This document shows, piece by piece, positions 7,060-64,000 of a DNA stretch of 64,000 nucleotides (positions within the stretch are counted from its first letter, which is position 1; every line of letters starts with the position of its first letter). Where the stretch lies: positions 20,612-84,611 of the forward strand of contig JAWLDG010000013.1 of the NCBI GenBank assembly GCA_041686775.1, read 5' to 3'. The stretch comes from Luteolibacter sp. GTDB taxonomy: Bacteria; Verrucomicrobiota; Verrucomicrobiia; Verrucomicrobiales; Akkermansiaceae. A model generated the notes under the pieces. That model did not search any database. It saw only the letters and a list, made by a program, of their open reading frames with translations, and was not told the DNA's origin. The position numbers and the translations under genes were made by a program.

Positions 7060-10000
7060 CTATTGGCCGAGCAACCGGTTTCCGAACAGCAGGAACACGG
7101 CGAGCAGCAGGAAGAGCACGGCGAGGGCGATCTTGACGGTGAAGGTGTGCTTTCGCTGGAAGGAAATGAGCGATTCGGAGCGCAGGCCGCCGTAGGCGAG
7201 GAGGAAGATGACGATGAGCGGGAGGATGAAGGCGAGGTTGTAGATGGCGAGCCAGAGCACGGCGTCGAGGCGGCCCTGGTGGATCTGATAGACGATGGGC
7301 GCGTAAACCTGGCCGGTGCAGGCGAGTTCGAGGAACGAAATGACGATGCCGGAGAGGAAGGCGGCGATGACGAAGCGGCGGGCGCGCGCGCCGCTGCGGA
7401 TCACGCCGCGGATGCGGTCCTTGAGCATGGCGGGGAGTTGGAGGGTCATCTCGTCCATGCGGCCGGCGCGGGCGCTCAGGGCGTCGCGGAACGAAAGCGC
7501 GGCGGCGACCAGTGCGAGCGCGGCGAAAACGAGATTGAGCCACTTTTGCAGTCCGCCGATGCGGGCGTGGAGCACGTCGAGAAACTGATGGAAGATGAAT
7601 CCCGCCGAGAAGTAGGCGAGGAACACGGCGGAAATGAAGGCAAAGCCTGTTAGAAGCATTTCGCGCGGCGTGCGGCGCGCGATCTGGAGGTAGGACAGGA
7701 AGAAGATGATGGTGGCGAAAGCGCAGGGGTTGATGCCGTCGAGCAGGCCGGCAATGAGCACCACCGGCAGGGTGAGCGCCTGATAGCGACGGTCCACCTC
7801 GCGCTCCGCCTCAACCGCCTCGGCGGTTTCGATTTCGCGCCACGAATCGTCCTGATCGATGGCCATGGTGTCGGCCAGCAACTTGGTCACGGCGGCGGGG
7901 GTGATTTCCGGGCCGATGACGAATCCCGCCTGGGTGAAAATCGCCGGCGCGACCGTCTGGCGGGTGGATGGGACATCGAGACGGTTGCAGAGCGCCTGGT
8001 TGAGCACGGTGCCATCGGGCGAGAGGATGTTGTGCTCGATCACGCGCAGCAGCGGGAAGTCGCCGCGCAGGCTGTCGAGCATCTGGCGGGCCTTGGCGCA
8101 GTCGGCGCAGCCGGGTTTGAGGAAATAGACGACATCGAGCGATTCGCGTACGATTTCCCGGTCGTCGTTTTTCTCCGGTGCCAGCAGCGGTCCATCGGTT
8201 GTTTCGGAGTCCGGCACGGCGGCCTTGGCGAGATCGGCGAAGGTGAAGAGGCCGTTCGCGAGTCCCGGATTGACGCGTGCGTTGAGGAGCTTGAGCTTGT
8301 CCGAATCGATCGTGGAGGTGTCGATCACGGTGAGCAGGGGACGCAGCGCGGGGGTGGCGCGTTCGGCGTTTTCCTCGAGCCAATCGGCGATGCGCCGGGC
8401 GGAGTTGTTGTCCTTCGGTTGTTGCGGCAGGAGTTTGGCGAAGGCGTCGAAGTCGATGGACGAACCGCGGGTGAGCAGGGCGAACGAGGACTCGAAGCGG
8501 ACCAGCGGCGAGGGGTCGGTGGCGGCGAGTTTGCCCAAGAGGGCGGTGGTTTCCTCATTGATCCGCGGCGGGGTGGCATTGCGGCCATAGACGTAGTGGT
8601 TGTCGCGCGTCGAGAGGGCATCGGTGAAGTAGTGTTGCCACGAATAGTTCTGGCGGATGACGCGGTCCGGCAGGACGGCGCGGACCAGCGCCTCGGGGTC
8701 TTCGGCGATGGCGGCGGCGGCTTTGTTGAGGTCGGCCGTGCGCAGGCTGAGCAGCGCGTGCCACGCGGCGCGGCGGACGAGAGGTTCGGCGCTCTTGGTG
8801 TTTTGATCTAACAATCTCCGTACGGATGTATCCGCGCAGTGGCGGGCGGCGACGCAGGCGAGCACCTTGAGCGGCACCTCCGCCTGCGTGTCGCCGAGCA
8901 CTTCGACGCACCACGGGCGCATCATCGACGACATCGAGCGGGCGATGGATTCGAAGCGGTAATCGTAAGCCTCGTTCGGTTGCAGCGGCGCGGCGGGATC
9001 GCTGAGGTCCTCGAAGACCAGCGAGATGAGCGCCTTGGCCTGCTCGTTGGAAAGCGCGCAGCGGATCGCGGCCGAGCGGACTTCCGCCACCGGATCGCGA
9101 AGCAGCGCGGTGAGCAGCGGCAACGCGCCGGCGGACGAGGGTTCATACAACTGATAGCAGATGGTCGTTTTGCGGGAGGTGTCGTAATCCGGCAGTTCTT
9201 CGAGGAGTTTGGCATATCCCTCGTCGTGGCCTGCGCGGGCGAGTTGCAGCGCAGCGTGGAATCGCTGGCCGGGCGAGCTTTCGGGCGTGAGCCGGGCTTT
9301 GAGCGCGACGAGAAGTTCGCCCATGTCGGATTGCGGCAGGGATGGAAGCAGCGCGGAGTTCTCCGATGCCTCGCCGAAGGGGACGAGGAAGGCGTCGTAG
9401 AGCGGATCGAGCGCGGTGGGTTCGCGCGATCCTTGGATAAGTTCGGCGACCGTGAGCAGGCGGCGATCGACCGCGCCACCTTTCGACGGCGGCAGTCGAA
9501 GGTTTTCCAAAATGACATCGGCCTTGGCGGGTGCCGCGTCGTCCTTCAGCGCGGCGACCAGCAGGCCGAGCGTGGCGGGGAGTTTGACGTGATCGTCGTC
9601 GGCAGCGAGCGCGCGCAGGGCGATGCAGGCGACGTCGGTGTCGGAATCGGCGGCGAAGCGCTGGAGCAGTTCGACCGGCGGCGAGCTTTCCGAAATGGCG
9701 CGGACGGTCGCCATGCGGACTTCGGCGGGTGAGGCATCGAGCGCGGCGAGCATTTCGGCATCCGGCTTGCGTTTCATGGCACCGTAGGCCGCGAACACCA
9801 TCGGGATCATCGCGGGGTCGTCCGCCATCTTGCGTTTCAACTGCGGCAGGGCGTCGGTGGCCGCGAGTGCGACGCAGGCCTTGATGGCGGCGGAGCGGAC
9901 GAACTCGTCGGGATCGTCGAGCAAGGCGACGGCCCTCCCGCGTGCCGCGCGGGTCTTGCGTTTCTCGATGTATTCGAGCGCGGCGGCGCGGACCCGCCAG

Positions 10001-14811: not shown

Positions 14812-17055
14812 TCAAGCAAGCCCGGAGCGGCGGCGGATGAACCACTCGGCGGCGAGCAACAGGGCTAGCAGGAGGGCGGTGGGTGCGTTGGTCCACGAAG
14901 CCTGCCACACGGCACCGGCGTCGCGCGCGGTTGGCGGCGTGGGTTTGACATGTTCGGCGAGAAACGCGTCGAACGCATCCACGGTGATGGATTTTCCGCC
15001 GGTGGCCTCGGCGAGGTTTTTCAAGAATGCGGGGTCGGGCGTGAGATCGTCGTTTTCGCTCGGCGCTGCGGGCACGGTGATGAGTGTCTCGGGCGCGGGC
15101 GGCGCTTCGTCTCGCGGATCGATTAGGCGGATACGCCAATCGCCGGGTGTCTCCGGCGTGAGGGTGGCGCGCCACAGCGGGCGCTCTGACGGGCTGGAGA
15201 TGGCGGCCGGGCCGATGCGTGTGGGTTCGCCGTCCGGGCCGGTGATTTCCAGCAGCGGCTGCGGCGCGGGATCGGCCCCGCGATAGGACATGGTGAGCGC
15301 CACCGTGCTGCCCGCCTCGGCACGGCCGGACGGTGCGCGCAGCGAGAAATCATGGCCCGGCAGGAATTCCGAATACGCCGCCATCCACTGGATGAGCTGG
15401 GTCCAGAAATCCTCGTAGCAGTTTCCCAACTCGCGCGCGTCCGGGAAAAAATCCCATTTCCACAAACCATCGCCATTGATCATCGCCACCACGCCCTGGC
15501 CGTAGCGGCGGACCAGTAGCGCGGGGAATTTTCCGGATGAGGAAAACTCCGAACTGGCCGGGAGGTCCGGCAGGCCATCGGCCAGCACGCGCGTGAATGG
15601 CTTCACCATCGAAACCTGCCGCGCGTCCTGCAAGGGTGGCAGCGAGGTCCACAACGAGGCGTCCGGCGCGGCCAGCGCCTGGCCGAAGAGCCCGGCGCTT
15701 TCGCCATCGCGGTTCGGCGCGAAGCGGAACGAGCCGATCGTCGCCGGTCCCCACACCACCGGTTCGAGCGGCTCGATGGCCGCGCTCGCCGCGGTGGTGG
15801 CTCGTCCGCGCGAGAACAACAGCGCGCCGCCGTGGTCGCGGACGTATGCACGCAGCAATGCGGCGCGTTCGTCTGTTAGAAACGAGTCCACGTTTTTCCC
15901 GAACACCACCAGATCGTAACGCGAGAGTTCCTCGAGCGAGTCGGGGAAGACCGGGTGCTCGGTCTCGGCGTTTTCGCGCTCGCCGGAATCGATGCGGAAA
16001 TAGCGCTTTTCCGACAAGCGGTGGATCGAGCGCAGTTCCATGTGCGTCTGCTGGCGGAGCAGTTGCGCGAGGAACTTGCTGTCCCAATACGGCGCGCCCT
16101 CGGCGAGGAACACGCGGGTGCGGGCGTCGAGCACGCGGACGTGGAACTGCGAGCGGTTGTTGGCCGGACGCAGTTCGCCATCGGCCGCCGGCACATCGAT
16201 CGACCACCCGCTGGACGCGGCCGGGGCGGGCACTTCGAAGGTGCCGGTGACGCTTGCGCCGGGTGCCACGTCGAGCGCGATTTCATCGAGCGCACCGCCA
16301 TCGGCGTCGCGCAAGGTGGCGGTGGCGCGCAGCGCGGGCAGGCCGGTCGATTCCAGCGCGAAGGGAACGCGCAGCGATTGACCGGCGAAGGTGGTGAACG
16401 CTGCGCGCGGTTGACGCAGGGCGAGATCGGCCGGCTCTCCCGTGGCACCGATGGTCACACTGTGCACCGGTGTTTCGCCGCTGCGGGCGCGGAGGGCGAG
16501 TGCTTCAAGCGCCGCGGCATTGGGGGCGGTCGTCTCGCGGCCGTCGCCGGCCACCAGCACGCCGGCGAGCGAGCGGCCGCTGGCGCTGTTTTCCTCCAGT
16601 GCGCGGCTCACTGCGGCGACGATGCGCGTGGATTCGCCATCGGATGAGGGAAGGTCTTCATCGCCCTCGGCGAGTGCCGGCAGCAGGTCGCCTGCGTAGG
16701 GATGGATGCGCACGGGGATGTCGTGACGTTCCGCGCGCGCGGTAAATGATTTGGTCAAACGTGCGGCGACCGCGGCCCTGGTTTCACCCGCGTTGTCGGC
16801 CGGTTGATTCATTGATTCCGAGGAATCAACCAGTATCAACCATGGCTTCGCCTCCTGCTCGGTCGGGTTCACCCAGGATCCCGGATTCAACAACAAGCCG
16901 AACACCGCCGCCACCGCGCAGGTCCGCAACGCCAGCAGCGCCACGCGCCGGCCGGTTGTCAGATCGAGCGAGCCACGCCACGCGCCCGCCAACACCACCG
17001 CCAGCACCACGATGGCGAGCGGAATGAGGATGGAGAGCGGCAGGGCGGGGGACAT
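14812..17055 (-). CDS. Membrane protein with a VWA-like and a GATase1-like (DUF1355-type) region, Bat-operon type
   Basis: ORF 14812..17055. N-terminal TM helices, a MIDAS-like WLILVDSSESM segment, and a C-terminal TM anchor (ALLLALLLAAEWFIRRR). Confidence 0.6.
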   Translation of the reverse strand: MSPALPLSILIPLAIVVLAVVLAGAWRGSLDLTTGRRVALLALRTCAVAAVFGLLLNPGSWVNPTEQEAKPWLILVDSSESMNQPADNAGETRAAVAARLTKSFTARAERHDIPVRIHPYAGDLLPALAEGDEDLPSSDGESTRIVAAVSRALEENSASGRSLAGVLVAGDGRETTAPNAAALEALALRARSGETPVHSVTIGATGEPADLALRQPRAAFTTFAGQSLRVPFALESTGLPALRATATLRDADGGALDEIALDVAPGASVTGTFEVPAPAASSGWSIDVPAADGELRPANNRSQFHVRVLDARTRVFLAEGAPYWDSKFLAQLLRQQTHMELRSIHRLSEKRYFRIDSGERENAETEHPVFPDSLEELSRYDLVVFGKNVDSFLTDERAALLRAYVRDHGGALLFSRGRATTAASAAIEPLEPVVWGPATIGSFRFAPNRDGESAGLFGQALAAPDASLWTSLPPLQDARQVSMVKPFTRVLADGLPDLPASSEFSSSGKFPALLVRRYGQGVVAMINGDGLWKWDFFPDARELGNCYEDFWTQLIQWMAAYSEFLPGHDFSLRAPSGRAEAGSTVALTMSYRGADPAPQPLLEITGPDGEPTRIGPAAISSPSERPLWRATLTPETPGDWRIRLIDPRDEAPPAPETLITVPAAPSENDDLTPDPAFLKNLAEATGGKSITVDAFDAFLAEHVKPTPPTARDAGAVWQASWTNAPTALLLALLLAAEWFIRRRSGLA

Positions 17056-53554: not shown

Positions 53555-55957
53555 TCAATAGGTGTAGTTGAGATAGAAGTTGAACTGACCGCCCTTGTCC
53601 GCCTCATCGTCCGGCGAGGAGACCGGGATCGCGTAGTCGAGCGCGAGTGGCAGCGGGCTGATCGGGAGCTGGAGGCGCACGCCCACACCCACATCGCTGT
53701 AGATGTCGTCCGGCGCGGGGTCCCAGCTGTCGAGGTTCACGAAACCGGCGTCGTAGAACACGGCGGCACGCACCGTGTCGATGATCGGGACGGTGTATTC
53801 CACGCTCATGTAGCCGAGCGAGTTGCCGCCGTAAACGTCGTCGGTGTAGCCGGTGTCGCGCGGGCCCACATCGCGGAACTCAAAGCCGCGCAAAGTACGG
53901 CCGCCGCCCAGGAACATGCGCTCGAAGACCGGCACCTCGCCGCTCACGGCGTCCACGAAGGCGAGTTCGCCGCTGAGCGAGAGGATCGTGTCCCACTTCA
54001 GGTTCCAGTATTTCTGGCCCTGGGCGGAAATGGTGAAGGTGTCCACGTCGCCGCCGAGGCCCGCGTAAGTGAGCCCGAGGTCCACCTTGTGGCCGGTGCG
54101 CGGCACGATGTTGCTGTCGCGGGTATCGAGCACCCAGTTCACCGCCAGTGCCGCGCGCAGGAAGTCGCCGCCGATTTCTTCCTCGGACAGGAAGGAGTTG
54201 GCGCCGCTGGTCGGGTCGAGCGGATCGTTTCCGGTGCCGCCAGTACCGTTGGCGAAGGTGTCGCCGGCATCCACATCGGAATCGATCTTCACGTTTTCAA
54301 CCCGCAGCTCGCCGCGGATGTAGCTTTTGTCGGTGAGCGGTTTGCGCAGCGAGATGGCGGCACCGGCATTGGTCTGCTCGAAGTAATCGCTGAAATAGGT
54401 GGACTGTTTGTAGAACAACTCGCCGCCGAGCGCGAGCTGGCGGTCGAGGAACCATGGCTCGACGAGCGAGATGCTGGCCTCGGAGCGTTCGTTGCCCAGG
54501 CGCAGATTCATGGCGAAACGCTGGCCGCCACCGGTGAAGTTCCACGGGTTGAAGAGGTCGAAGTTCGACTGCTCGAGGGTGAGGAAACCGACCACGCTGT
54601 CGATCGAACTGAAGCCGATGCCCACGCCCACCGAACCGGTGGCGCGCTCTTCGACGAGCACGTCGAGGTCGCGATAACCGCCGCCGGCGGGCACGCCGGT
54701 GACCTGCACGTCACTGAAGTATTGCAGGTTTTCGAGGCGGGCCTTGGTGGTTTCGAGTTCCACCGAGTTGAACCAATCGCCCGGTTGGAGAGGGACCTCG
54801 CGGCGGATCACCTTGTCCTTGGTCTTGGTGTTGCCGGCGATGTTCACCTTGCCGACGCGGTAGCGCGAGCCTTCGGTGATGCGATAGATGATGGTAACGC
54901 GGTTCGGGCCGGCGTCGCGGATGTCCGGCGAGACGGTGGCGTCGGCGTAACCACGGGATCCATAGTAGCTGCGGATCATGGTGATGTCCGCGCGCATTTT
55001 CTTCGAACTGTAGGGATCGTTGCCGTTGAGGGTGAGCGCCGGATAGAGTTCCTCCGGCTTGAAGACCGTCATCTTGCCGAAACCGACGCCGGCGACGGTG
55101 TATTTGTCGCCCTCCTCGATCGGGATGACGATGTCCACGCGGCCGTCCTTGACCGGCTCGCGGCGGATGCCGGGACAGTTGACGCGGAGGTAGCCGCGAC
55201 TGCGGTAGAAATCGAGCACCGCGTTGAGGTCCTCGTCGAGCTGGTCGGTCTCGATGCGGCCGGACTTGGTGAGCCACGAGAACCAGCCCTTGGGCTTGGT
55301 CTTCATTTCCTTGCGCAGCTCGTTGTCGGTGAAGACCGTGTTGCCCTCGAAACGGATCTTGCGGATCTCGTTCTTGCCGCCTTCCTCGATCACGAAAATG
55401 AGATCCGCCACGCCTTCGTTTTCGGTGGGCTGGATGCGGTGGCTCACGCTCACATCGGGATAGCCGTAGCCACGGTAGTAGTTCTCGATGTTGCGGCGGG
55501 CTTCGAGGATTTCCGCATCGCTCATCACGCCGCGGGGCTTGAGCTTGGTCTCACGCGCCAGTTTCTGGTCGGAGAAAACGGTGTTGCCCATGAAGCCCAC
55601 GCCGCCACGCATCGGACGGGTGGTCACCTCGGCAATGAGGCGGACGCTGTCACCCACCGGCTCGGCGAGAAACCGCACGTCGTCCACCAGGCCGGATTCG
55701 TAGAGGGCTGCGATGTCGCGGTCGAGGTTCTCGGCGCGGTAGGTGCCGCCGGCCTTGGAACTCATCTGGTTGCGTAGCGCGTCCTCGTTCACCGTCTTGG
55801 GACCACGGTAGCGGATGTCCACCGCGGTGATGTTTTTGCCCTCGAAGTCCTGAGCGTGCAGAGTGCCGATCATGGAAGCGAGGGCAACGCAGGCGAGGGT
55901 GGCGGTCCGGGCCAGACGGCCGGTGATGAGGTGGCGGGAAAAAGGAAATCGGCGCAT
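53555..55957 (-). CDS. bamA: Outer membrane protein assembly factor BamA (POTRA repeats plus Omp85 barrel)
   Basis: ORF 53555..56008. I prefer the ATG at 55957 (MRRFPFSRHL... then a signal peptide). POTRA-like repeats (I..V.F.GN..F), a barrel with VRGF-type RTLRGFEF, and a C-terminal aromatic residue (...NYTY). Confidence 0.9.
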   Translation of the reverse strand: MRRFPFSRHLITGRLARTATLACVALASMIGTLHAQDFEGKNITAVDIRYRGPKTVNEDALRNQMSSKAGGTYRAENLDRDIAALYESGLVDDVRFLAEPVGDSVRLIAEVTTRPMRGGVGFMGNTVFSDQKLARETKLKPRGVMSDAEILEARRNIENYYRGYGYPDVSVSHRIQPTENEGVADLIFVIEEGGKNEIRKIRFEGNTVFTDNELRKEMKTKPKGWFSWLTKSGRIETDQLDEDLNAVLDFYRSRGYLRVNCPGIRREPVKDGRVDIVIPIEEGDKYTVAGVGFGKMTVFKPEELYPALTLNGNDPYSSKKMRADITMIRSYYGSRGYADATVSPDIRDAGPNRVTIIYRITEGSRYRVGKVNIAGNTKTKDKVIRREVPLQPGDWFNSVELETTKARLENLQYFSDVQVTGVPAGGGYRDLDVLVEERATGSVGVGIGFSSIDSVVGFLTLEQSNFDLFNPWNFTGGGQRFAMNLRLGNERSEASISLVEPWFLDRQLALGGELFYKQSTYFSDYFEQTNAGAAISLRKPLTDKSYIRGELRVENVKIDSDVDAGDTFANGTGGTGNDPLDPTSGANSFLSEEEIGGDFLRAALAVNWVLDTRDSNIVPRTGHKVDLGLTYAGLGGDVDTFTISAQGQKYWNLKWDTILSLSGELAFVDAVSGEVPVFERMFLGGGRTLRGFEFRDVGPRDTGYTDDVYGGNSLGYMSVEYTVPIIDTVRAAVFYDAGFVNLDSWDPAPDDIYSDVGVGVRLQLPISPLPLALDYAIPVSSPDDEADKGGQFNFYLNYTY

Positions 55958-56304
55958 GGGGTGTGAAGGGATGGCCGTATGTAGCCGGTTCAATCCACCG
56001 TCCGTCAAGGTGAATAGCGGGATTTCCTAAGATTTCTTTACTAATTGGGCAGAATCGTAGACAGGCCGCTGGAGGCCGGACTGTGCGAGTCTGACGTTTC
56101 TTGTCCCCTGGCCCCGTCACGCACAGCACGCTGGAATCACGGCTATTCCGGCCAGCCTCTGCCATGACTTGCCATCGGTGGCCAATCCCACGCTCCCACG
56201 GGAGCAGGATATGCGCCTCGTTTGGTGAATCCCGCGCATCCGGCATGCTCGACACCTCCTGCGGATCGGGGGTTAACTCAACGGGTTTGTTCCGACAGCC
56301 CCCC

Positions 56305-57033
56305 ATGAACCATTACGATTCAGATCGGTTCACGACCACCAACTGGAGCCTCGTGATTGCTGCGATGGAGACGGCTCCCACCCGTGCCACCGACGCGATG
56401 GAGCGGCTGTGCTCCCGCTACTGGTTTCCGGTCTATGCCGCCATCCGCCGTGCCGGAAACGACGCGCATCATGCGGAGGACCTGACCCAGGGATTTTTCG
56501 AGTTCGCCATCGAGAACCGCTTGCTGCAGCGGGCCCGCAAGGACAAGGGGCGCTTCCGCAGTTTCATCCTGACCTCGCTCAACAATTTTCTCCACAATCG
56601 CCATGATCGCGCCACCGCGGTGAAGCGTGGCGGCGGATATCAGATCGTGCCGTTCGACGAGGCGGATGCCGAAAGGATCCTCGCCAGCGAGCCGGCCTCC
56701 AACGGCACATCGCAGGATTCGTTCGACCGGCGCTGGGCTGTGACGCTCATCCGCAGGGTCATGGAGAACCTCCGGAATGAATATGCCAAACGCGGAAGGA
56801 GCGCCACACATGATTCCCTGCTTCCGCATCTGACGAACAATCCTTCGCCGGTTGATTTCCTCAGGCTAGCTGCGGACCTCGATCTGGAAGCCGGCGCGCT
56901 GCGTGTGGCGCTGCACCGCTTCCGCCGTCGTTTCGGCGAACTGCTCCGCAGCGAAGTCGCCCATACCGTGACGACTCCCGATGAAGTGGAGGAGGAAATC
57001 CGCTATCTGCTGTCCATCCTTGCGGACGGATGA
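56305..57033 (+). CDS. ECF-type RNA polymerase sigma factor, kinase-associated (ECF43-like) type
   Basis: ORF 56101..57033. I prefer the ATG at 56305 (MNHYDSDRFTTTNWSLV...). Sigma region 2-like AEDLTQGFFEF and region 4-like LRVALHRFRRRFGELL. No anti-sigma ORF is adjacent, and the next gene is a Ser/Thr kinase. Confidence 0.75.
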   Translation: MNHYDSDRFTTTNWSLVIAAMETAPTRATDAMERLCSRYWFPVYAAIRRAGNDAHHAEDLTQGFFEFAIENRLLQRARKDKGRFRSFILTSLNNFLHNRHDRATAVKRGGGYQIVPFDEADAERILASEPASNGTSQDSFDRRWAVTLIRRVMENLRNEYAKRGRSATHDSLLPHLTNNPSPVDFLRLAADLDLEAGALRVALHRFRRRFGELLRSEVAHTVTTPDEVEEEIRYLLSILADG

Positions 57034-57051
57034 AACATCACAAGATCCCGC

Positions 57052-57078
57052 TGTAACTCCGGGAGCGTTTTTCTTTAG
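57052..57078 (+). promoter_or_regulatory. Bipartite motif TGTAAC-N12-TTTCTTTAG (copy 1), candidate ECF-type promoter
   Basis: TGTAAC at 57052-57057 and TTTCTTTAG at 57070-57078, ending 21 nt before the kinase ATG at 57100. It lies in the 66-nt sigma-kinase spacer. Confidence 0.45.
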
Positions 57079-57099
57079 CAACGACTGCACGGTAACGAA

Positions 57100-60000
57100 A
57101 TGCCCGATCCACCGAAATGCTCCCAGTGCGGCTCGCCACTCGCCCCGGATGTGCCGGGCGGCCTTTGCCTGCGTTGCCTGCTGGGCCTCGGACTGAAGAG
57201 TGACGCAGCGGCGGATGAGGACGATCAACCGGCCGCCGCGGACGACGATGATGACGATTTCCCGGGCTATCGCATTCTCGAAAAAATCGGCGAGGGCGGA
57301 GGTGGCGTCGTCTATCGCGCCGCGCAAAGCGAACCCGTGCGCCGGGAAGTCGCCCTCAAGGTCATCCGCCTTGGCATGGACACGCGCACGGTGATCGCCC
57401 GCTTCGAGGCCGAGCGCCAGGCCCTCGCACTGATGGACCACCCGGGCATCGCCCGCGTCTTCGATGCCGGCGTCACCGGCCGGGGACGTCCGTTTTTCGT
57501 GATGGAACTCGTCGCCGGGGAACCCATCACCGGTTTCTGCGACCGGAAAAACCTCTCCGTCCCCCAACGACTCGAACTTTTCCTGCATGTCTGCGAAGCC
57601 GTCCGCCACGCCCACCTCAAGGGCATCATCCATCGCGACCTCAAGCCGTCCAACATCCTCGTCACCGAAACGGACGAACGGGCGGTCCCCAAGGTGATCG
57701 ACTTCGGAGTCGCCAAGGCGATGGATCACCAGCGCCTCGCCGACCAGACGATTTACACCGCCTTCGACCAGTTTGTGGGCACGCCCGCCTACATGAGTCC
57801 CGAGCAGGCCGGCCTGACGGGGGAGGACATCGACGCGCGCAGCGACATCTATTCGCTCGGCGTCCTGTTATATGAACTGCTAACCGGTCGGCCGCCGTTT
57901 GAACCGGAGCGTTTGCGAAAGGTAGCCATCGATGAAATCTGCCGGATCGTCCGCGAGAAGGATCCGGTACTGCCGTCCATCCGCCTCACCACTCTTGCCG
58001 AGGCGGAGTTGACCGCCACTGCCCGGCGGCGCATGTGCCCGCCCAAACGCCTTGTCAGCGACCTGCGCGGCGACCTCGACGGGATTGTGATGAAGGCGAT
58101 GGAGAAATCGCGCAGACGCCGATACGAGACCGCCGGCGAGCTGGCGGCCGACATTTCCCGCCACCTGAACCACGAACCGGTCACCGCCCGTCCGCCGGGC
58201 TCTCTCTATCGGTTTCTCAAATTCGCACGCCGCAACAAACTCCTGCTCGGAGCCGCGACTATCGTGCTCGCCTCACTCATCGCCGGCATCTTCGTTTCCT
58301 CATGGATGTATCTCAGGGAAAAACAGACCCGCCAGCATCTGGAATACCGCGCCTATCTCACCGACATGAAATCGGCTTGCGGGACGGCACTGCACACCCG
58401 CAGCAGCCTCGCCGGCACCATCAAACTCCTCGAGGCGAACCGCCGTCACGCCCCTGACTTCCGCAACTGGGAATGGTATTTCCTCAACGGTCTCTGTCAT
58501 CGGGAAATCCTCACCATCCACGCCGATCCCGAGGCCGTCTTCTCGGTTTCCTGGAGTTACAATGGCAGGCTGCTCGCCACCGGTGGCTCGGCGGACCCCA
58601 TCGGTCTCTGGGATGTCGATAGCGGCCGGAAAGCGGGAGAACTTCCCGGCCATCCGGGGGGTGTCCGCTGTCTCTCTTGGGAACCCTCCGGCACACGCCT
58701 GGCCTCGGCCGGCAACGACAAGTCGGTCCGAATCCGGGACACCATCACCGGCGAAAGCCGGATTCTGGGCGAGCACGGCAACATCGTTTCCTCCCTGGCC
58801 TGGGCACCGGATGGCGCATGGCTCGCATCCGGATCCCACGATAAAACCGTCACGATCTGGGACACCCGGAAAAATTCAGCCCCCCGCACGCTGACCGCCG
58901 CGCACCCGGTTCGCGCCGTGGGCTGGCATCCGGATGGCAACCGCCTGATTGCCTGCGGCGACAATGGCCTCGCCCATTGCTGGGACGCCGCCAGCGGAAG
59001 CACCCGCTGGCAACACAGCGCCGAAATCGGCGGACACATCCAGGCCGCCGTTTGGTCTCCCGACGGCCGCCAGATCTTCACCGGAGGCACGCAACCATCC
59101 GTGGATTTCCGCAACGCCGATACCGGCCAGACGACGCATTCGCTGTGGGACAACCAGAACACCGTCACCGCCGTGGCCTGGAGCCCCGATGGCCGCTTGC
59201 TCGCTTCCGGAACCCGTTACGACGGCAATATCGCCATCCGCAGTTCCCTCGGCGGCGGCGCACCAATCCGTTCGTTCCGCAGCCATCGCGGCTCCGTCAA
59301 CTCCCTGGCATGGAATCCCGATGGATCCAAGCTCGCTTCAGCCAGTGCGGACGGCACGGCCAGAATTTGGAACCCGACCGACCGGAATCCTACAATCGTC
59401 AACCTGCAAATGCCGTCGGCCCTGATTCTCGCGTGGAGTCCGGACGGCACAAAACTCGCCGCCGGCGGCCGTCGCATGGATTCATGGGTCTATGATTTTA
59501 CCATTCAAGCCCCGGTTGCACTGGACGGCGGCTTCGTCCCATGGACCCGATCCGTCGCATGGAATGCGGATAACACAATGCTCGCGACCGTTGGCGAGCG
59601 TGGTCTGCGGGTATGGGACTTCCCCTCCCGCACCACCGTCTGGCGTGATCCCTCATCCTTCCCGCGGCTCAGCACCGTCGCATGGGACACCCGGCGCGGG
59701 CGCATCATTGCCGGCGGCCTTCATGGCTTTTCCATCTGGGACGCGGCAACAGGCACGATCCTGAAAACCGTGCCTCTCAAGGGCGGTGCCGGCAAGCTGG
59801 CCCTCAGCCCGGACGGACGCCAGCTGGCGGTCACCGGGGAAACCGTCATTTCACTCTTTGATTCGGTGGCACTCACCCGCATCCGGTCCTGGCCCGCTCA
59901 CGCCGAAACCATCTACTCCATCGCATGGCACCCCGCCGGGATTCTGCTCGCCTCGGGCGGTGCCGATACCTCCGCGAAAATCTGGGACACCCGCACCGGC

Positions 60001-60681
60001 GGAATCCTGCATACCTTGAACGGTCATGGCGGTCCGGTCCGCCACGTCGTTTGGAATCCGGACGGCTCCAGATTGTGTACCGGTGGCTCGGACGCCACCG
60101 TCAGACTTTGGGATGCGGACACCGGACTGGAAGTCTGCGTTTTCGACAAACCGGGTTCGATCATCCAAACAATCCAGGGACTCGCCTGGACTCCCGACGG
60201 TCGCCGCATTGCCATCTCGGACGGGGAGGGAAACCTCGTCATCCTGGATGCCACGCCCGGCTGGCAGGTCGAGTCCGGCACTCCCGTGACCAGCTTCCCC
60301 ACCCGCGATGCCGCAGGCCATCAGGAAACCATCCGCTCGCTCCTCATCTACTGCGATACCGTGGAACCCCTATCTAACGACGACTCCGATGCCCTCCGCC
60401 GCCTGGCCTGGATTCGCGCCACCGCTCCCTATCCCGAAGTCCGCGACGGACCCAAAGCTCTGCGTTTCGCCCAAGCCGCCAATCGCGAAGTCGGCGGCCG
60501 GAATGCCGGCATCCTCAGCATCCTCGCCGCCGCCCACGCCGAGTGCGGCGATTTCGAACAGGCCGTCGCCATCCAGAAGCAGGCGATTTCCCTCATCAGC
60601 AGCGACCTTCGCCGCTCCACCTTCGCCTCCCAACTCCGCCTCTACGAATCCCGCCAACCCTTCCGAGATGACTCGTGGTGA
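57100..60681 (+). CDS. Ser/Thr protein kinase with an N-terminal Cys4 motif, one TM helix, about 14 WD40 repeats and a TPR-like C-terminus
   Basis: ORF 57100..60681. N-terminus CSQCG...CLRC. Kinase motifs GEGGGGVVY, HRDLKPSNILV, DFGVAK and GTPAYMSPEQ. TM helix LLLGAATIVLASLIAGIFV. Repeated WD40 units (e.g. SADGTARIWN, GHGGPVRHVVWNPDG, ATVRLWD). Confidence 0.92.
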   Translation: MPDPPKCSQCGSPLAPDVPGGLCLRCLLGLGLKSDAAADEDDQPAAADDDDDDFPGYRILEKIGEGGGGVVYRAAQSEPVRREVALKVIRLGMDTRTVIARFEAERQALALMDHPGIARVFDAGVTGRGRPFFVMELVAGEPITGFCDRKNLSVPQRLELFLHVCEAVRHAHLKGIIHRDLKPSNILVTETDERAVPKVIDFGVAKAMDHQRLADQTIYTAFDQFVGTPAYMSPEQAGLTGEDIDARSDIYSLGVLLYELLTGRPPFEPERLRKVAIDEICRIVREKDPVLPSIRLTTLAEAELTATARRRMCPPKRLVSDLRGDLDGIVMKAMEKSRRRRYETAGELAADISRHLNHEPVTARPPGSLYRFLKFARRNKLLLGAATIVLASLIAGIFVSSWMYLREKQTRQHLEYRAYLTDMKSACGTALHTRSSLAGTIKLLEANRRHAPDFRNWEWYFLNGLCHREILTIHADPEAVFSVSWSYNGRLLATGGSADPIGLWDVDSGRKAGELPGHPGGVRCLSWEPSGTRLASAGNDKSVRIRDTITGESRILGEHGNIVSSLAWAPDGAWLASGSHDKTVTIWDTRKNSAPRTLTAAHPVRAVGWHPDGNRLIACGDNGLAHCWDAASGSTRWQHSAEIGGHIQAAVWSPDGRQIFTGGTQPSVDFRNADTGQTTHSLWDNQNTVTAVAWSPDGRLLASGTRYDGNIAIRSSLGGGAPIRSFRSHRGSVNSLAWNPDGSKLASASADGTARIWNPTDRNPTIVNLQMPSALILAWSPDGTKLAAGGRRMDSWVYDFTIQAPVALDGGFVPWTRSVAWNADNTMLATVGERGLRVWDFPSRTTVWRDPSSFPRLSTVAWDTRRGRIIAGGLHGFSIWDAATGTILKTVPLKGGAGKLALSPDGRQLAVTGETVISLFDSVALTRIRSWPAHAETIYSIAWHPAGILLASGGADTSAKIWDTRTGGILHTLNGHGGPVRHVVWNPDGSRLCTGGSDATVRLWDADTGLEVCVFDKPGSIIQTIQGLAWTPDGRRIAISDGEGNLVILDATPGWQVESGTPVTSFPTRDAAGHQETIRSLLIYCDTVEPLSNDDSDALRRLAWIRATAPYPEVRDGPKALRFAQAANREVGGRNAGILSILAAAHAECGDFEQAVAIQKQAISLISSDLRRSTFASQLRLYESRQPFRDDSW

Positions 60682-60707
60682 CCACCTATCCAAAATCCAA
60701 TATTTTA

Positions 60708-60734
60708 TGTAACAACCGCCCGCCGTTTCTTTAG
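60708..60734 (+). promoter_or_regulatory. Bipartite motif TGTAAC-N12-TTTCTTTAG (copy 2)
   Basis: TGTAAC at 60708-60713 and TTTCTTTAG at 60726-60734, upstream of the HTH gene (ATGs at 60741 and 60831). An AT-rich ATCCAAAAT word tract precedes it. Confidence 0.45.
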
Positions 60735-60830
60735 GAAATCATGACGGTATATGCCGTACCGCCAAGGGCGGGGGAGGATACCCGCCCCCCACTCCGCCCC
60801 CCGCCCTTCAAACCCATCAGAACCGCCACC

Positions 60831-61145
60831 ATGCCCCCCAAGGAACCGTTGGAACCCGGCGCGGATCACGACCTCGCCCACTTCGCCACCCGCCTGAGGC
60901 AATGGCGCGAAGACCAAGGCATGGTCCTCAAGCAGGCCGCAAGCCGCTTCGGTGTCGCTGTGGCCACCTGGAGCCGCTGGGAAAAACAGGAGCGCTTCCC
61001 CTCGCCCGCCAATCTCCGCCTGCTCGCCGAGTTCATCGGCGTCCCCATCTGCTGCTTCTTCTATCCCGCGCCCGGCTCCTGCCCGCACTGCCCGGGAAAC
61101 CGGCAGGACAATCCGCCAGACGGTGCCGACGGCGGAAAACCGTAA
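60831..61145 (+). CDS. XRE-family helix-turn-helix protein with a C-terminal CxxC tail
   Basis: ORF 60741..61145. HTH segment LRQWREDQGMVLKQAASRFGVAVATWSRWEKQERFPSPANLRLLAEFIGV, then tail CCFFYPAPGSCPHCPG. The start is ambiguous (ATG 60741 or 60831). I list 60831 because the first 30 codons are Pro/Arg-rich. Confidence 0.7.
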   Translation: MPPKEPLEPGADHDLAHFATRLRQWREDQGMVLKQAASRFGVAVATWSRWEKQERFPSPANLRLLAEFIGVPICCFFYPAPGSCPHCPGNRQDNPPDGADGGKP

Positions 61146-61439
61146 GACAACGCTCCAGCCTGTCTCGGACGGCAGGCAGCTGTCCGGCCCTCAGCCTCTG
61201 AACTGCACAGCTGGCCGGCCACTGCTCCGAGCCTGCACGGGGTCCGCACGCGTCCCGCATGCCGGTTTACGCATCTTGCGGAAATCCCTCAGTTGCCCGG
61301 GCTGCACCAATGACAAGACCATGGCGCTGGATGCGCCATGAAACACGGGGGACGCGCGCGGATTCCCACTCGGAATCCGCTGCTTGATCACTGCAAAGCC
61401 ATTTCAGCAGGCCTGCATGGTCCTCTGCCGCATTCCTCT

Positions 61440-61979
61440 TCAACCGGGAACGCGGTCCGGGAAATCCGGGCACAGCACGGAGTGTGCGATGGGGCCAGCG
61501 GGCGTGTGGAAGCGCAGCGTGCCCTCGGTTTCGCAGAGCCACACTTCGTCGGCGCCGGCATCGAAATAGAGCGCCATCTTCTCCGCCATCTCGGCGGCAG
61601 TGTTGGAGGGCGAGAGGACTTCAACGCAGATTTCGGGTGCTTGGAGGAACAGCGGGCTGGCTCCGGATTTGCGGAGCCTGCTGCTGGAGGCCCATGTGAT
61701 GTCGGCGGCACGGACTCCATCGGAGGTGGAAACCGGGGATTCGGTCTGGACATGCTCGCCCATCAGCCGGTCGAGCATGCGGGCGATGGCGAACTGGCGG
61801 GAACCGTGTTGGCGGGAGGGAGGAGGACTCATGAGAATGTGGCCGTGGCGGTCGGTCTCAAGGCGGCCTTCGATTTTTGCCAGCGCCGGATCGTCAAGCA
61901 TCCGCTGCCAGACGCGGAGGTTGAACTCCTGCTGGTCCGCGCGCGGAGGAAGTTGGATGGCGAGACTCATTGACGGCAA
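61440..61979 (-). CDS. Uma2 family (DUF820) endonuclease
   Basis: ORF 61440..61979. PD-(D/E)xK-like core ADITWAS...PEICVEVLSPSN...KMALYFDAGADEVWL, typical of Uma2. Confidence 0.8.
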   Translation of the reverse strand: MPSMSLAIQLPPRADQQEFNLRVWQRMLDDPALAKIEGRLETDRHGHILMSPPPSRQHGSRQFAIARMLDRLMGEHVQTESPVSTSDGVRAADITWASSSRLRKSGASPLFLQAPEICVEVLSPSNTAAEMAEKMALYFDAGADEVWLCETEGTLRFHTPAGPIAHSVLCPDFPDRVPG

Positions 61980-62102
61980 AAAGTAGCGGACGAGTCATGC
62001 CCCCGCAAGGAAACAACCCATAAATCAACGTGGGAATCGACCTGCAAAACCACTGAATCGATTCAAAATTAGTTCATTCGCGGGTTCATTTTCCCAAATC
62101 GG

Positions 62103-62186
62103 TTCATTGGCGTGCCGATCTGCCGCTTCTTCTATCCCGCACCCGGCTCCTGCCCGAATTGCCCGGGTCATCCCGCTTCATTTTAG
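62103..62186 (+). pseudogene. Orphan 3' fragment of a paralogue of the HTH gene at 60831..61145
   Basis: My own alignment: 62102-62167 matches 61031-61096 at 59 of 66 nt. The in-frame translation FIGVPICRFFYPAPGSCPNCPGHPASF* mirrors FIGVPICCFFYPAPGSCPHCPG. No HTH-coding part lies upstream. Confidence 0.65.
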
Positions 62187-62236
62187 GGACGAGCGCCGCC
62201 TTGCCAGTCCAATGCGCCATCTCCCTTCACATCGAA

Positions 62237-62260
62237 GTTCGATGTTGGAAGTTCGATGTT
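62237..62260 (+). repeat. 24-nt element GTTCGATGTTGGAAGTTCGATGTT (copy 2)
   Basis: 77-100 nt upstream of the ATG at 62337, in sense orientation. An internal tandem duplication of GTTCGATGTT. Confidence 0.8.
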
Positions 62261-62336
62261 CCTCATCCCGGACTTACCAATCTGTCAAAACGCACGGCTT
62301 GCCGCATCGGTGGAATTCTAACCAAGATTCACCCAA

Positions 62337-63698
62337 ATGAACCCCCTACCCTCCCTCCTCGGGTTGGCCGCGGCCCAGGCACTCGCATTCGGAATCACCC
62401 TTTCAAGCACCCACGCCATCGTCGTCGATGGCCTTCGCGACGCCGCCGGCTACGGCGCCCCGCTCGCCGTGCAAACCACGCCCACCAACTGGGACATCGA
62501 CAATTTCGTCGCCAATTTCCACGCCGTTCGCGGCACCGGCGGCATCAATGTCTTCATGGGCGGGCGGGCCGCCAGCGGCAATGCCATCCTCCTCTTCATC
62601 GATTCCAAGCCGGGCGGCCGAACCTTCATCCCCAACAACCTCATCACCACCGGTGGCGAAGGCGAATATATAAACAACCTGGGATCATCGCCAACCGCCG
62701 GCCTCGCCTTCGAGACCGGTTTCGAGCCCGACTACGCCTTGCGCATCTACGGCATCAATGCCGACGCCCACATCAACCAATACAATTTGCAAACCGGCAA
62801 CCGGATCTACCTCGGCAACGCCGGCACCGACAACAGCAGCGGCGGGATCGTCAGCACCATGCGCGTTTCCTGGGCGAATCTTGCAGGCGAAATGGCGGAC
62901 CATGCCGCCGGAGTCGAGATCGCGCTCAACATGGATGCCATGGGCGTCCCGGCCGGAGACCAAGCGGTCAAGTTCATGGCGGTTCTCGTCACCGGCGACT
63001 CGAACTATGGCTCCAACCAGGTGATCGCCTCGCGCACCTCGACCACCCAGGACATCGGCGACGGCCTGAATGGCACCATCGGCATCAAGAACATCGACTT
63101 CGAAACCGAACCGGGAATCCAAACGCTGGAACTCCTCATCGACGGTGACGACACCGACGGCGACGGCCTGCTCGATTTCGAAGACCCCGATGACGACAAT
63201 GACGGGCTGCTCGACATCGTGGAAACCGACACCGGAATTTATGTGGACGAGAACGACACCGGCACCGATCCCCTGATCGCCGACACCGACCAGGACGGAC
63301 TGCTGGACGGTGACGAAGTTTATTTTTACGGCACCAATCCAACCAAAAGCGACACTGACGGCGACGGCCTCAACGACCGGGTGGAACTCGAAGTGTATTT
63401 CTGCAATCCGCTGCTGAAAGACAGCGACAGCGATGGTTTCGACGACCTTTTCGAGGTGAACACCGGCTTCAATCCGGCATTGAATACCAGCACGCCGGAC
63501 GCCCTGTCATCCATCCGCACCGCCGTCGAGTTCCGCTTCAACGCGGCGACAGACGTGAGCTATCGCATCGAAGTTTCGACCGATCTCAATGAATGGAGCA
63601 CCGTGGAAACCGACATCATCGGCGAAAGCGCGGTGGTCACCCGCTTCTACTCCATCGAGAACCAACCCAAGCGCTACTTCCGCGCCAGACGCAACTGA
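62337..63698 (+). CDS. Secreted protein with thrombospondin type-3-like calcium-binding Asp repeats
   Basis: ORF 62337..63698. Signal peptide, then repeated DxDxDG units (DTDGDGLLD, DDDNDGLLD, DTDQDGLLDGDE, DTDGDGLNDRVE, DSDSDGFDD) and a C-terminal beta-rich domain. Confidence 0.75.
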   Translation: MNPLPSLLGLAAAQALAFGITLSSTHAIVVDGLRDAAGYGAPLAVQTTPTNWDIDNFVANFHAVRGTGGINVFMGGRAASGNAILLFIDSKPGGRTFIPNNLITTGGEGEYINNLGSSPTAGLAFETGFEPDYALRIYGINADAHINQYNLQTGNRIYLGNAGTDNSSGGIVSTMRVSWANLAGEMADHAAGVEIALNMDAMGVPAGDQAVKFMAVLVTGDSNYGSNQVIASRTSTTQDIGDGLNGTIGIKNIDFETEPGIQTLELLIDGDDTDGDGLLDFEDPDDDNDGLLDIVETDTGIYVDENDTGTDPLIADTDQDGLLDGDEVYFYGTNPTKSDTDGDGLNDRVELEVYFCNPLLKDSDSDGFDDLFEVNTGFNPALNTSTPDALSSIRTAVEFRFNAATDVSYRIEVSTDLNEWSTVETDIIGESAVVTRFYSIENQPKRYFRARRN

Positions 63699-63706
63699 TC
63701 CCGCCC

Positions 63707-63727
63707 TGTAGCGGCGGTCTATGACCG
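63707..63727 (+). repeat. 21-nt exact repeat TGTAGCGGCGGTCTATGACCG (copy 2)
   Basis: It starts 9 nt after the stop of the 62337..63698 gene. Imperfect hairpin CGGCGGTC-TAT-GACCGACG. Confidence 0.8.
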
Positions 63728-63814
63728 ACGATGCCCATGAACCCGGCCAATCCACCGCCCCCCCTCTTCCATCCAAAATTCACAATCCACAATCCAAAAT
63801 TCCCTCCCTCTCCC

Positions 63815-63841
63815 TGTAACATCCAAGCTCTGTTTCTTTAG
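63815..63841 (+). promoter_or_regulatory. Bipartite motif TGTAAC-N12-TTTCTTTAG (copy 3)
   Basis: TGTAAC at 63815-63820 and TTTCTTTAG at 63833-63841, ending 43 nt before the ATG at 63885. ATCCAAAAT/CACAATCC word repeats precede it. Confidence 0.45.
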
Positions 63842-63884
63842 CAATCATTGACACACCGGATCACCCGTCTCGCCGCAATTCCGG

Positions 63885-64000
63885 ATGCAACACATCCTCC
63901 ACTCCCCGGCCATTCCACCCCGCCTGTTCGCGGTGCTGCTGCTCGCGTCCATCGCCGCTGCCGCGATCCCCGGCGATCTGGATGCGGATGGCATGGTGAG
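63885..64000 (+). CDS. 5' end of a secreted protein gene; continues beyond the window
   Basis: Manual translation from the ATG at 63885 gives MQHILHSPAIPPRLFAVLLLASIAAAAIPGDLDADGMV... It is signal-peptide-like and is preceded by the TGTAAC-N12-TTTCTTTAG motif. Confidence 0.4.
   Translation, partial: MQHILHSPAIPPRLFAVLLLASIAAAAIPGDLDADGMV

Follow-up and report, generated by a model that had tools for sequence, protein, structure and literature searches.

A putative divergent sigma factor gene is followed by three copies of a bipartite motif

We analysed a 64,000-nucleotide (64-kb) stretch of Luteolibacter sp. contig JAWLDG010000013.1, hereafter the window, in which a gene for a putative, very divergent extracytoplasmic function (ECF)-type sigma factor is followed by three copies of a bipartite DNA motif, each upstream of a gene. 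The sigma gene (56305–57033, plus strand) encodes 242 amino acids, identified from sub-threshold domain matches, a family profile and the annotation of homologues, and its product is our proposed reader of the motif. At position +1, after a 66-nt spacer, comes the gene for a 1193-amino-acid Ser/Thr kinase (57100–60681, plus strand) with a zinc ribbon, a kinase domain, one membrane helix, WD40 propellers and C-terminal helical repeats (Pkinase, E = 3e-43; WD40, E = 7e-81). Its CxxC-x11-CxxC pattern at residues 7–26 has weak similarity only to Pfam zinc ribbons, and its single hydrophobic stretch, LLLGAATIVLASLIAGIFVSSWMY, was recognized by eye in the translation. Further downstream on the same strand lie a gene for an XRE-family helix-turn-helix (HTH) regulator (60831–61145; HTH_31, E = 1e-10; possible alternative start at 60741) and the beginning of a gene for a secreted protein (63885–64000), a candidate third target whose open reading frame, cut by the window end, encodes a signal peptide and the start of a dockerin-type domain. 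This truncated frame is identical at 25 of 32 residues to the N-terminal part of the protein encoded at 9632–10732 of the orthologous locus L205. That protein carries Dockerin_1 at E = 3e-8, and L205 served as a stand-in for the region past 64000.

Exact pattern searching found TGTAAC-N12-TTTCTTTAG exactly three times in the window, always on the plus strand, confirming the coordinates, identical spacing and sense orientation given in the original prediction. Site 1 (57052–57078, 29.8 bits) lies in the sigma–kinase spacer and ends 21 nt before the kinase ATG at 57100. Site 2 (60708–60734), the top-scoring copy at 42.0 bits, ends 6 nt before an in-frame ATG at 60741 and 96 nt before the HTH start at 60831, and site 3 (63815–63841, 27.2 bits) ends 43 nt before the ATG at 63885; these distances, first reported in the same prediction, were all correct on re-measuring. 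The scores come from a position matrix built from other loci only, with the window left out. The next-best site on either strand of the 64 kb reached 5.2 bits, and the maximum after shuffling was 15.6 bits.

Allowing up to three mismatches added no further site in the window, where shuffling gave a chance expectation of 0.00 sites at ≤2 mismatches and 0.24 at ≤3. The window has four TGTAAC hexamers, of which one lies outside the three sites. A scan for the sigma-70 consensus found no housekeeping-type promoter at any of the three sites, no terminator was found between the sigma and kinase genes, and a search of 55900–64000 against Rfam returned no relevant match.

Sites 2 and 3 resemble each other beyond the core, with 77% identity over 30 nt, and the upstream ATCCAAAAT words and downstream TCAT(T)GAC that they had been said to share are both real. 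A half-site, TTTCTTTAC, had also been placed upstream of the sigma gene at 56042–56050. It does lack a TGTAAC partner, as claimed, and its actual position is 56033–56041, nine bases away. We dismissed it as part of the system: it is a chance-level, one-mismatch match to the 9-mer (3.2 expected) with no −35 partner, and the absence of the motif upstream of the sigma gene in every family member places it outside the system.

The proposed reader is a putative, very divergent ECF-type sigma factor

Domain models recognized the 242-residue protein below their thresholds. Pfam Sigma70_r2 matched at E = 4e-4 (20.5 bits against a curated cut-off of 24) and TIGR02937 (sigma70-ECF) at E = 5.6e-4 (19.6 bits against a cut-off of 42.9); the Pfam search of the protein returned no region 4 match and no match to Sigma70_ECF. 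A profile of 27 homologues aligned to both sigma2 (AEDLTQ, region 2.2) and sigma4 (HTH) of M. tuberculosis SigE at E = 0.05. The AlphaFold model is all-helical, with a mean predicted local distance difference test score (pLDDT) of 78.6, and its top Foldseek matches in the PDB were all ECF sigmas (SigE, AlgU, SigL, sigmaE, SigH and CnrH) at non-significant E-values of 0.28–1.3. Of 2698 homologues, JGI calls many ECF sigmas, and precomputed annotations assign PF04542 and PF08281 to some. We take the protein to be a very divergent ECF-type sigma factor.

Two regions stand out in the family alignment. Region 2.2 reads HHAEDLTQ, with nearly invariant acidic residues, and in the sigma4 helix residues V201, R205, R207, F210, G211, L214 and R215 are invariant, an invariance that parallels that of GTAAC in the motif. 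The alignment also contains a near-invariant N-terminal F-x-T-T-x-W-S-x-V before region 2.1 (sigma residues 9–17; window 56305–56350). Because region 2.2 keeps its acidic residues, the conserved Thr and Ser of this N-terminal segment (T11, T12 and S15) are candidate targets of the kinase.

The motif keeps a fixed geometry across the sigma family

For comparison, we collected 80 loci around sigma homologues from reference genomes, mostly of Verrucomicrobiota with some Kiritimatiellales, Acidobacteriota and Planctomycetota; the closest of these homologues, from an Akkermansiaceae metagenome-assembled genome, is 70% identical to the window sigma. Several metagenome contigs with 70–89% identical sigma orthologues were added. 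Across 1.12 Mb around the sigma homologues, GTAAC and CTTTAG (≤1 mismatch) occur at a spacing of 15 nt in 40 sites on the sigma strand and 5 on the other; each other spacing from 8 to 23 gives 0–4 sites.

Together, 39 distinct sites give the consensus tGTAAC-N12-TTnCTTTAGnAA. Conservation extends to positions outside those used for selection (T-1 in 29/39, T17 in 29/39, T18 in 36/39, A27 in 37/39 and A28 in 26/39), and the 12-nt spacer is G+C-rich and variable. Among 14 orthologous sites from six loci, the only invariant positions are TGTAA, the T three bases before CTTTAG, CTTTAG itself and the A two bases after it. The fixed 15-nt GTAAC–CTTTAG geometry and the conservation of the flanks support the earlier proposal that these are ECF-type promoters with an AAC-type −35 and a T-rich −10.

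Alternatively, the copies could be unrelated to transcription initiation, being remnants of a dispersed repeat or a signal that acts at the RNA level within transcript 5′ ends. The extended similarity of sites 2 and 3 would fit such an origin, as would several class-2 sites elsewhere that are alike beyond the core. Yet conservation is confined to two short blocks while the spacer varies freely, and the motif has no Rfam match, is not flanked by inverted or direct repeats and is not spanned by any secondary structure. The motif is also kept at the same gene junction across phyla, and start codons 2–30 nt away place it upstream of, not within, most predicted transcripts. Of the explanations considered here, we give this one the least credence.

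Metagenomes were also searched by the exact pattern of the original prediction. Among the matches listed, one sigma–motif–kinase locus (L133) looked genuine and three others possibly so (L164, L121 and L159); the rest were judged to be chance matches, mostly in contigs of 25–45% G+C.

The partner kinase gene is the conserved predicted target

In about half of 97 family members, spread over several phyla, the motif lies directly after the sigma stop codon and before the start of the partner kinase gene; the site 1 position itself is kept in L001–L004 and L205–L208. Sites scoring >20 bits number 31 in the sigma-to-kinase spacer and 25 further downstream on the sigma strand, mostly just after the kinase gene. 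In three further cases the site is far upstream on the sigma strand and immediately precedes a zinc-ribbon kinase gene that itself lies upstream of sigma; five sites are on the opposite strand. The motif typically ends 2–30 nt before the next start codon. A check for bias in orientation and position relative to start codons had been suggested at the outset, and around the sigma homologues it revealed both a sigma-strand bias and this closeness to starts. If transcription begins the usual few bases after the −10 element, start codons at such distances imply that the transcripts probably have very short leaders or none.

The sigma genes themselves lack the motif upstream: 0 of 92 have a match >10 bits in the 400 nt before the gene, versus 51 of 92 in an equal space downstream. 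Judged from these sequences, the sigma gene is not autoregulated through the motif. The motif and the sigma family co-occur in Verrucomicrobiota, Kiritimatiellales and Acidobacteriota, and the zinc-ribbon N-terminus of the partner kinases is likewise conserved across phyla. The partner kinase, presumed to regulate the sigma factor, is placed by motif position as the primary predicted target conserved across the family, with the XRE regulator and the dockerin-type secreted protein as predicted lineage-specific targets. Elsewhere, motif-preceded genes vary with lineage and encode dockerin, DUF5122 propeller, RHS, HYR/PMP-repeat, beta-helix, Kelch and Ig-domain proteins, a FeeM-like acyltransferase and a hydrolase.

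Every kinase paired with the sigma family (L004–L080; window 57118–57180) begins with CxxCG-x9-11-G-x-CxxCL, on the cytoplasmic side and before the kinase domain. This zinc-ribbon N-terminus might be a dock for the sigma factor or an anti-sigma-like domain.

Sites 2 and 3 are conserved in orthologous loci of 75–82% identity, before the XRE HTH gene and the gene for the dockerin-domain secreted protein. The second site precedes the HTH gene or its conserved leader in L004, L205, L206 and L208, with HTH genes in L004, L205 and L206, and the site 3 orthologue in L205, at 9563, keeps the same 43-nt distance to the dockerin-domain gene. That an HTH gene directly follows site 2 raises the alternative that a DNA-binding regulator, such as this XRE protein, uses the motif as its operator and that the motif is not a promoter. 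Such regulators often bind near their own promoters, and sites 2 and 3 share ATCCAAAAT-type heptads upstream and ATGAC downstream that are possible regulator sites. However, the motif consists of two unlike blocks at a fixed distance and in strict orientation to genes, unlike the dyad sites of XRE dimers, and homologues of the HTH protein are confined to the five closest loci, whereas dozens of loci that lack such a homologue carry the motif. On this distribution we dismissed the HTH protein as the motif reader, and we regard an operator of any kind as very improbable.

Which sigma factor reads the sites

Family members that diverge from the consensus, and those that occur in multiples, bear on the identity of the reader. 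In a clade of the Candidatus Udaeobacter type (L025, L027, L032, L035, L036, L053, L055, L057, L058, L061, L063, L074 and L076), GTAAC overlaps the sigma stop codon and the 15-nt spacing is kept, with GCGCAGTAC replacing CTTTAGnAA. A site that keeps its place and spacing beside its own sigma gene while the downstream block changes is as expected if each sigma factor reads the adjoining site. A search for covariation between sigma residues and the −10 variant (CTTTAG versus GCGCAGTAC) found fixed differences in both sigma2 and sigma4, which are confounded with phylogeny and were not used as evidence.

Tandem sigma–kinase modules with near-identical core motifs are found in L021 (four pairs in 16.7 kb), in L011 (four motif sites) and in L009/L013, which raises the question of how paralogues in such arrays avoid cross-talk. 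They also bear on a reading in which the sites are genuine alternative-sigma promoters served by a sigma factor encoded elsewhere, of the same family or another, with adjacency to the sigma gene reflecting a cascade or shared ancestry. In L021 and L011 nearly the same core stands before each kinase, so that the core is not paralogue-specific, and a sigma gene without a motif site of its own must depend on something else for its expression. Against this, the motif directly follows the sigma gene in about half of the family members, from several phyla; the window contains a single family member, with exactly three sites, each of them at most 7 kb downstream of it; and the clade with the different downstream block retains place and spacing beside its own sigma gene. 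We consider a distant reader unlikely.

A kinase-controlled regulon as the favoured explanation

We consider it likely that RNA polymerase carrying the adjacent divergent ECF-type sigma factor (56305–57033) uses the three sites as promoters. The sites have the features of ECF-type promoters, namely an AAC-containing −35, a fixed spacer to a short second block, sense orientation and a place just upstream of genes. GTAAC, usually after a T, would be the −35 element, and the block TTnCTTTAGnAA, beginning 12 nt downstream of it, would hold the −10 element and probably the start region. We infer sigma binding to the motif, the bases of the −10, the transcription start and control of the sigma factor by the kinase from these sequence features. 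The kinase would sense an extracytoplasmic signal through its periplasmic WD40 domain and activate the sigma factor, either by phosphorylation as in ECF43 sigmas or through its zinc-ribbon N-terminus. Active sigma factor would in turn raise transcription of the kinase gene, a feedback on the sensor, and in the Luteolibacter lineage would also raise expression of the XRE-family regulator and the dockerin-type secreted protein. The original prediction had proposed a local regulon of an adjacent ECF sigma covering these three genes. The conserved sites before all three support this, and its description of the reader needs amending, as the protein is ECF-like and very divergent.

Several points weigh against reading the sites as promoters of this sigma factor. 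ECF promoters typically have a CGT core, which the proposed −10 block does not contain, and the gap from AAC to CTTTAG is 15 nt versus the usual 16–17 nt. The sigma factor itself has diverged to the point that sigma-70 domain models match it below threshold and its fold search is non-significant. About half of the family members have no match to the matrix, some of them carrying the GCGCAGTAC downstream block instead. Multi-pair genomes (L021 and L011) carry near-identical motifs before their kinases, and the core motif therefore cannot tell which paralogue reads which site. The site counts cover ±8–10 kb around the sigma genes plus the 64-kb window, and the matrix was derived from the same loci that were later counted for position, although the position and strand bias are independent of that. 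Finally, chance matches in AT-rich contigs overwhelmed the pattern-first metagenome scan, which hence was not usable as a genome-wide test.

A wider synthesis joins these elements, and we judge the case for it to be evenly balanced. It holds that tGTAAC-N12-TTnCTTTAGnAA would be the first promoter consensus for ECF-like sigmas linked to WD40/zinc-ribbon kinases in the Planctomycetes–Verrucomicrobia–Chlamydiae (PVC) group and Acidobacteriota. The sigma gene would never be autoregulated through the motif, the gene of its own sensor kinase would be the universally conserved target, with feedback on the sensor, and transcription from an atypical −10 without CGT would yield near-leaderless transcripts. 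The published ECF classification would, in this synthesis, have reported no conserved promoter because it searched upstream of the sigma genes.

Features of the intervals around sites 2 and 3

Between site 2 and the HTH gene, a conserved G+C-rich leader of the predicted HTH transcript, with a possible hairpin, occupies 60741–60815 on the plus strand (ATGACGG...GGGCGGGGG...CCCCCGCCC). The same leader, as ATGACGG..CCGCCAAGGGCGGGGG..CCCCCGCCC, occurs at L004 14499–14580, L205 6868–6950 and L208 14832–14900. Its conservation is at the nucleotide level, with reading frames that differ between loci, and in L208 no HTH gene follows. The leader can fold as an 11-bp G+C hairpin (−33.7 kcal/mol, z = −2.3), with no match to an Rfam family. 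It might act as a structured regulatory RNA or as an operator.

Two to five tandem heptads, ATCCA(A/C)(A/G)A, precede the −35 by 10–15 nt at the sites before the HTH and dockerin genes, with copy number differing among orthologues. We located them at 60688–60703 and 63771–63800 in the window and upstream of 6836 and 9563 in L205, of 11232 in L206 and of 14800 in L208; none were found at kinase sites. They may bind the XRE regulator or serve as an upstream promoter element.

The remaining genes of the interval are a minus-strand Uma2 gene (61440–61979), which comes after the HTH gene, and a gene for a TSP3-repeat secreted protein (62337–63698). At the other end of the locus, a minus-strand BamA/Omp85 gene neighbours the sigma gene upstream. 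Uma2 is flanked by a 66-nt direct repeat, 89% identical between 61031–61096 and 62102–62167, in which the 3′ end of the HTH gene is duplicated, and L205 carries Uma2 and a PIN/MazE pair at the equivalent place. From the repeat and the L205 arrangement together, the interval between the HTH and dockerin genes therefore seems to be an insertion hot spot. A separate sequence, CTTACCAATCTGTCAAAACGC...GCTTGCCG, is conserved at 62268–62300 in the window and at 14895–14930 in L004, upstream of the gene for the secreted protein encoded after the HTH region. That gene encodes the TSP3 protein in the window and a dockerin protein in L004, and it is not preceded by a GTAAC/CTTTAG site; it may have its own promoter at the conserved sequence.

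Significance

We found no report of the motif in PVC bacteria in the literature, and the promoter consensus appears to be unreported for its sigma class. The evidence supports an ECF-type sigma regulon of a known general kind with wiring that departs from the textbook, in that the kinase rather than the sigma factor would be the conserved target. Kinase-linked ECF sigmas are abundant in Planctomycetes, Verrucomicrobia and Acidobacteria; the experiments we found concern the proteobacterial ECF43 type only, and no target promoter is known from the PVC group (PMC8999054, 10.1101/2019.12.11.873521). For this poorly studied class of kinase-controlled sigma factors, tGTAAC-N12-TTnCTTTAGnAA would be the first testable promoter consensus.

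A sharp consensus at a fixed position would allow regulons to be predicted in thousands of uncultured genomes and would permit reporter fusions and in vitro transcription assays. It would also help in testing how a WD40 kinase controls a sigma factor that retains the acidic core-binding motif. For promoter discovery more generally, approaches that assume autoregulation miss families in which the conserved target is the regulator gene and not the sigma gene.

Comparison with known systems

At the level of the promoter, the closest parallels are ECF sigmas with a GTAAC-type −35. The B. subtilis SigX promoter is TGTAAC-N17-CGAC. Autoregulation is typical of the ECF family, although not universal. 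Among the examples quoted in the supplement of the ECF classification are C. crescentus SigF (GTAACC-CGTA) and C. glutamicum SigD (GTAACA/G-GAT) (10.1101/2019.12.11.873521 supplement). The motif described here shares with the SigX, SigD and SigF promoters the −35 core, the bipartite form and the fixed spacer. It differs in its −10 block, TTnCTTTAGnAA, which has no CGT or GAT core, and in the gap from AAC to the C of CTTTAG, which is 15 nt versus 16–18. Those sigmas are autoregulated and controlled by anti-sigma factors, whereas the window sigma appears to be neither.

Among kinase-linked groups, ECF217 (formerly part of ECF59) is known from Rhodopirellula and Pirellula only, within the Planctomycetes, and has no predicted promoter (10.1101/2019.12.11.873521 supplement). 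Like the window, it has a kinase at +1, and dockerin type I and TPR proteins are encoded nearby; here a dockerin-domain gene is preceded by the motif. As far as the descriptions can be compared, no WD40 or zinc-finger kinase is described for ECF217.

The ECF43 pairs EcfP–PknT of Vibrio parahaemolyticus and EcfK–PknS of Xanthomonas citri provide our working model, in which the kinase activates the sigma factor by direct phosphorylation (PMC8999054, PMC13147305). In these proteins a phosphorylated threonine replaces the acidic residues of region 2.2 (QTTA/STTA) and supplies the charge (PMC8999054, PMC13147305). ECF43 is proteobacterial, with the predicted promoter GTC-Xn-CAG (10.1101/2019.12.11.873521 supplement). 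Both systems place an ECF sigma beside a membrane Hanks-type kinase with no anti-sigma factor. They differ in the motif, in region 2.2, where the window sigma keeps AEDLTQ instead of QTTA/STTA, and in that ECF43 matches Pfam Sigma70_ECF, which the window sigma does not. Because AEDLTQ is kept, control of the window sigma may differ from that of ECF43.

The gene context matches ECF62, a likeness drawn from the published description and from gene content. ECF62 was reportedly first defined in Planctomycetes by Jogler et al. 2012 and re-described by Casas-Pastor et al. 2021. Its +1 gene encodes a kinase with a zinc finger at the N-terminus, a single membrane helix and WD repeats, and the group lacks an anti-sigma factor (10.1101/2019.12.11.873521 supplement). 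All of the corresponding kinase features are present in the window: position +1, one hydrophobic stretch, WD40 repeats and the CxxC-x11-CxxC N-terminus. ECF62 membership is listed as 100% Planctomycetes (10.1101/2019.12.11.873521 supplement), whereas the window sigma comes from an Akkermansiaceae-like verrucomicrobium and its family reaches the Acidobacteriota. The published classification found no conserved promoter for ECF62, and likewise none for ECF61 and ECF217 (10.1101/2019.12.11.873521); its promoter predictions searched upstream of the sigma genes, assuming autoregulation. The conserved motif found here lies on the other side, downstream of the sigma gene and before the kinase.

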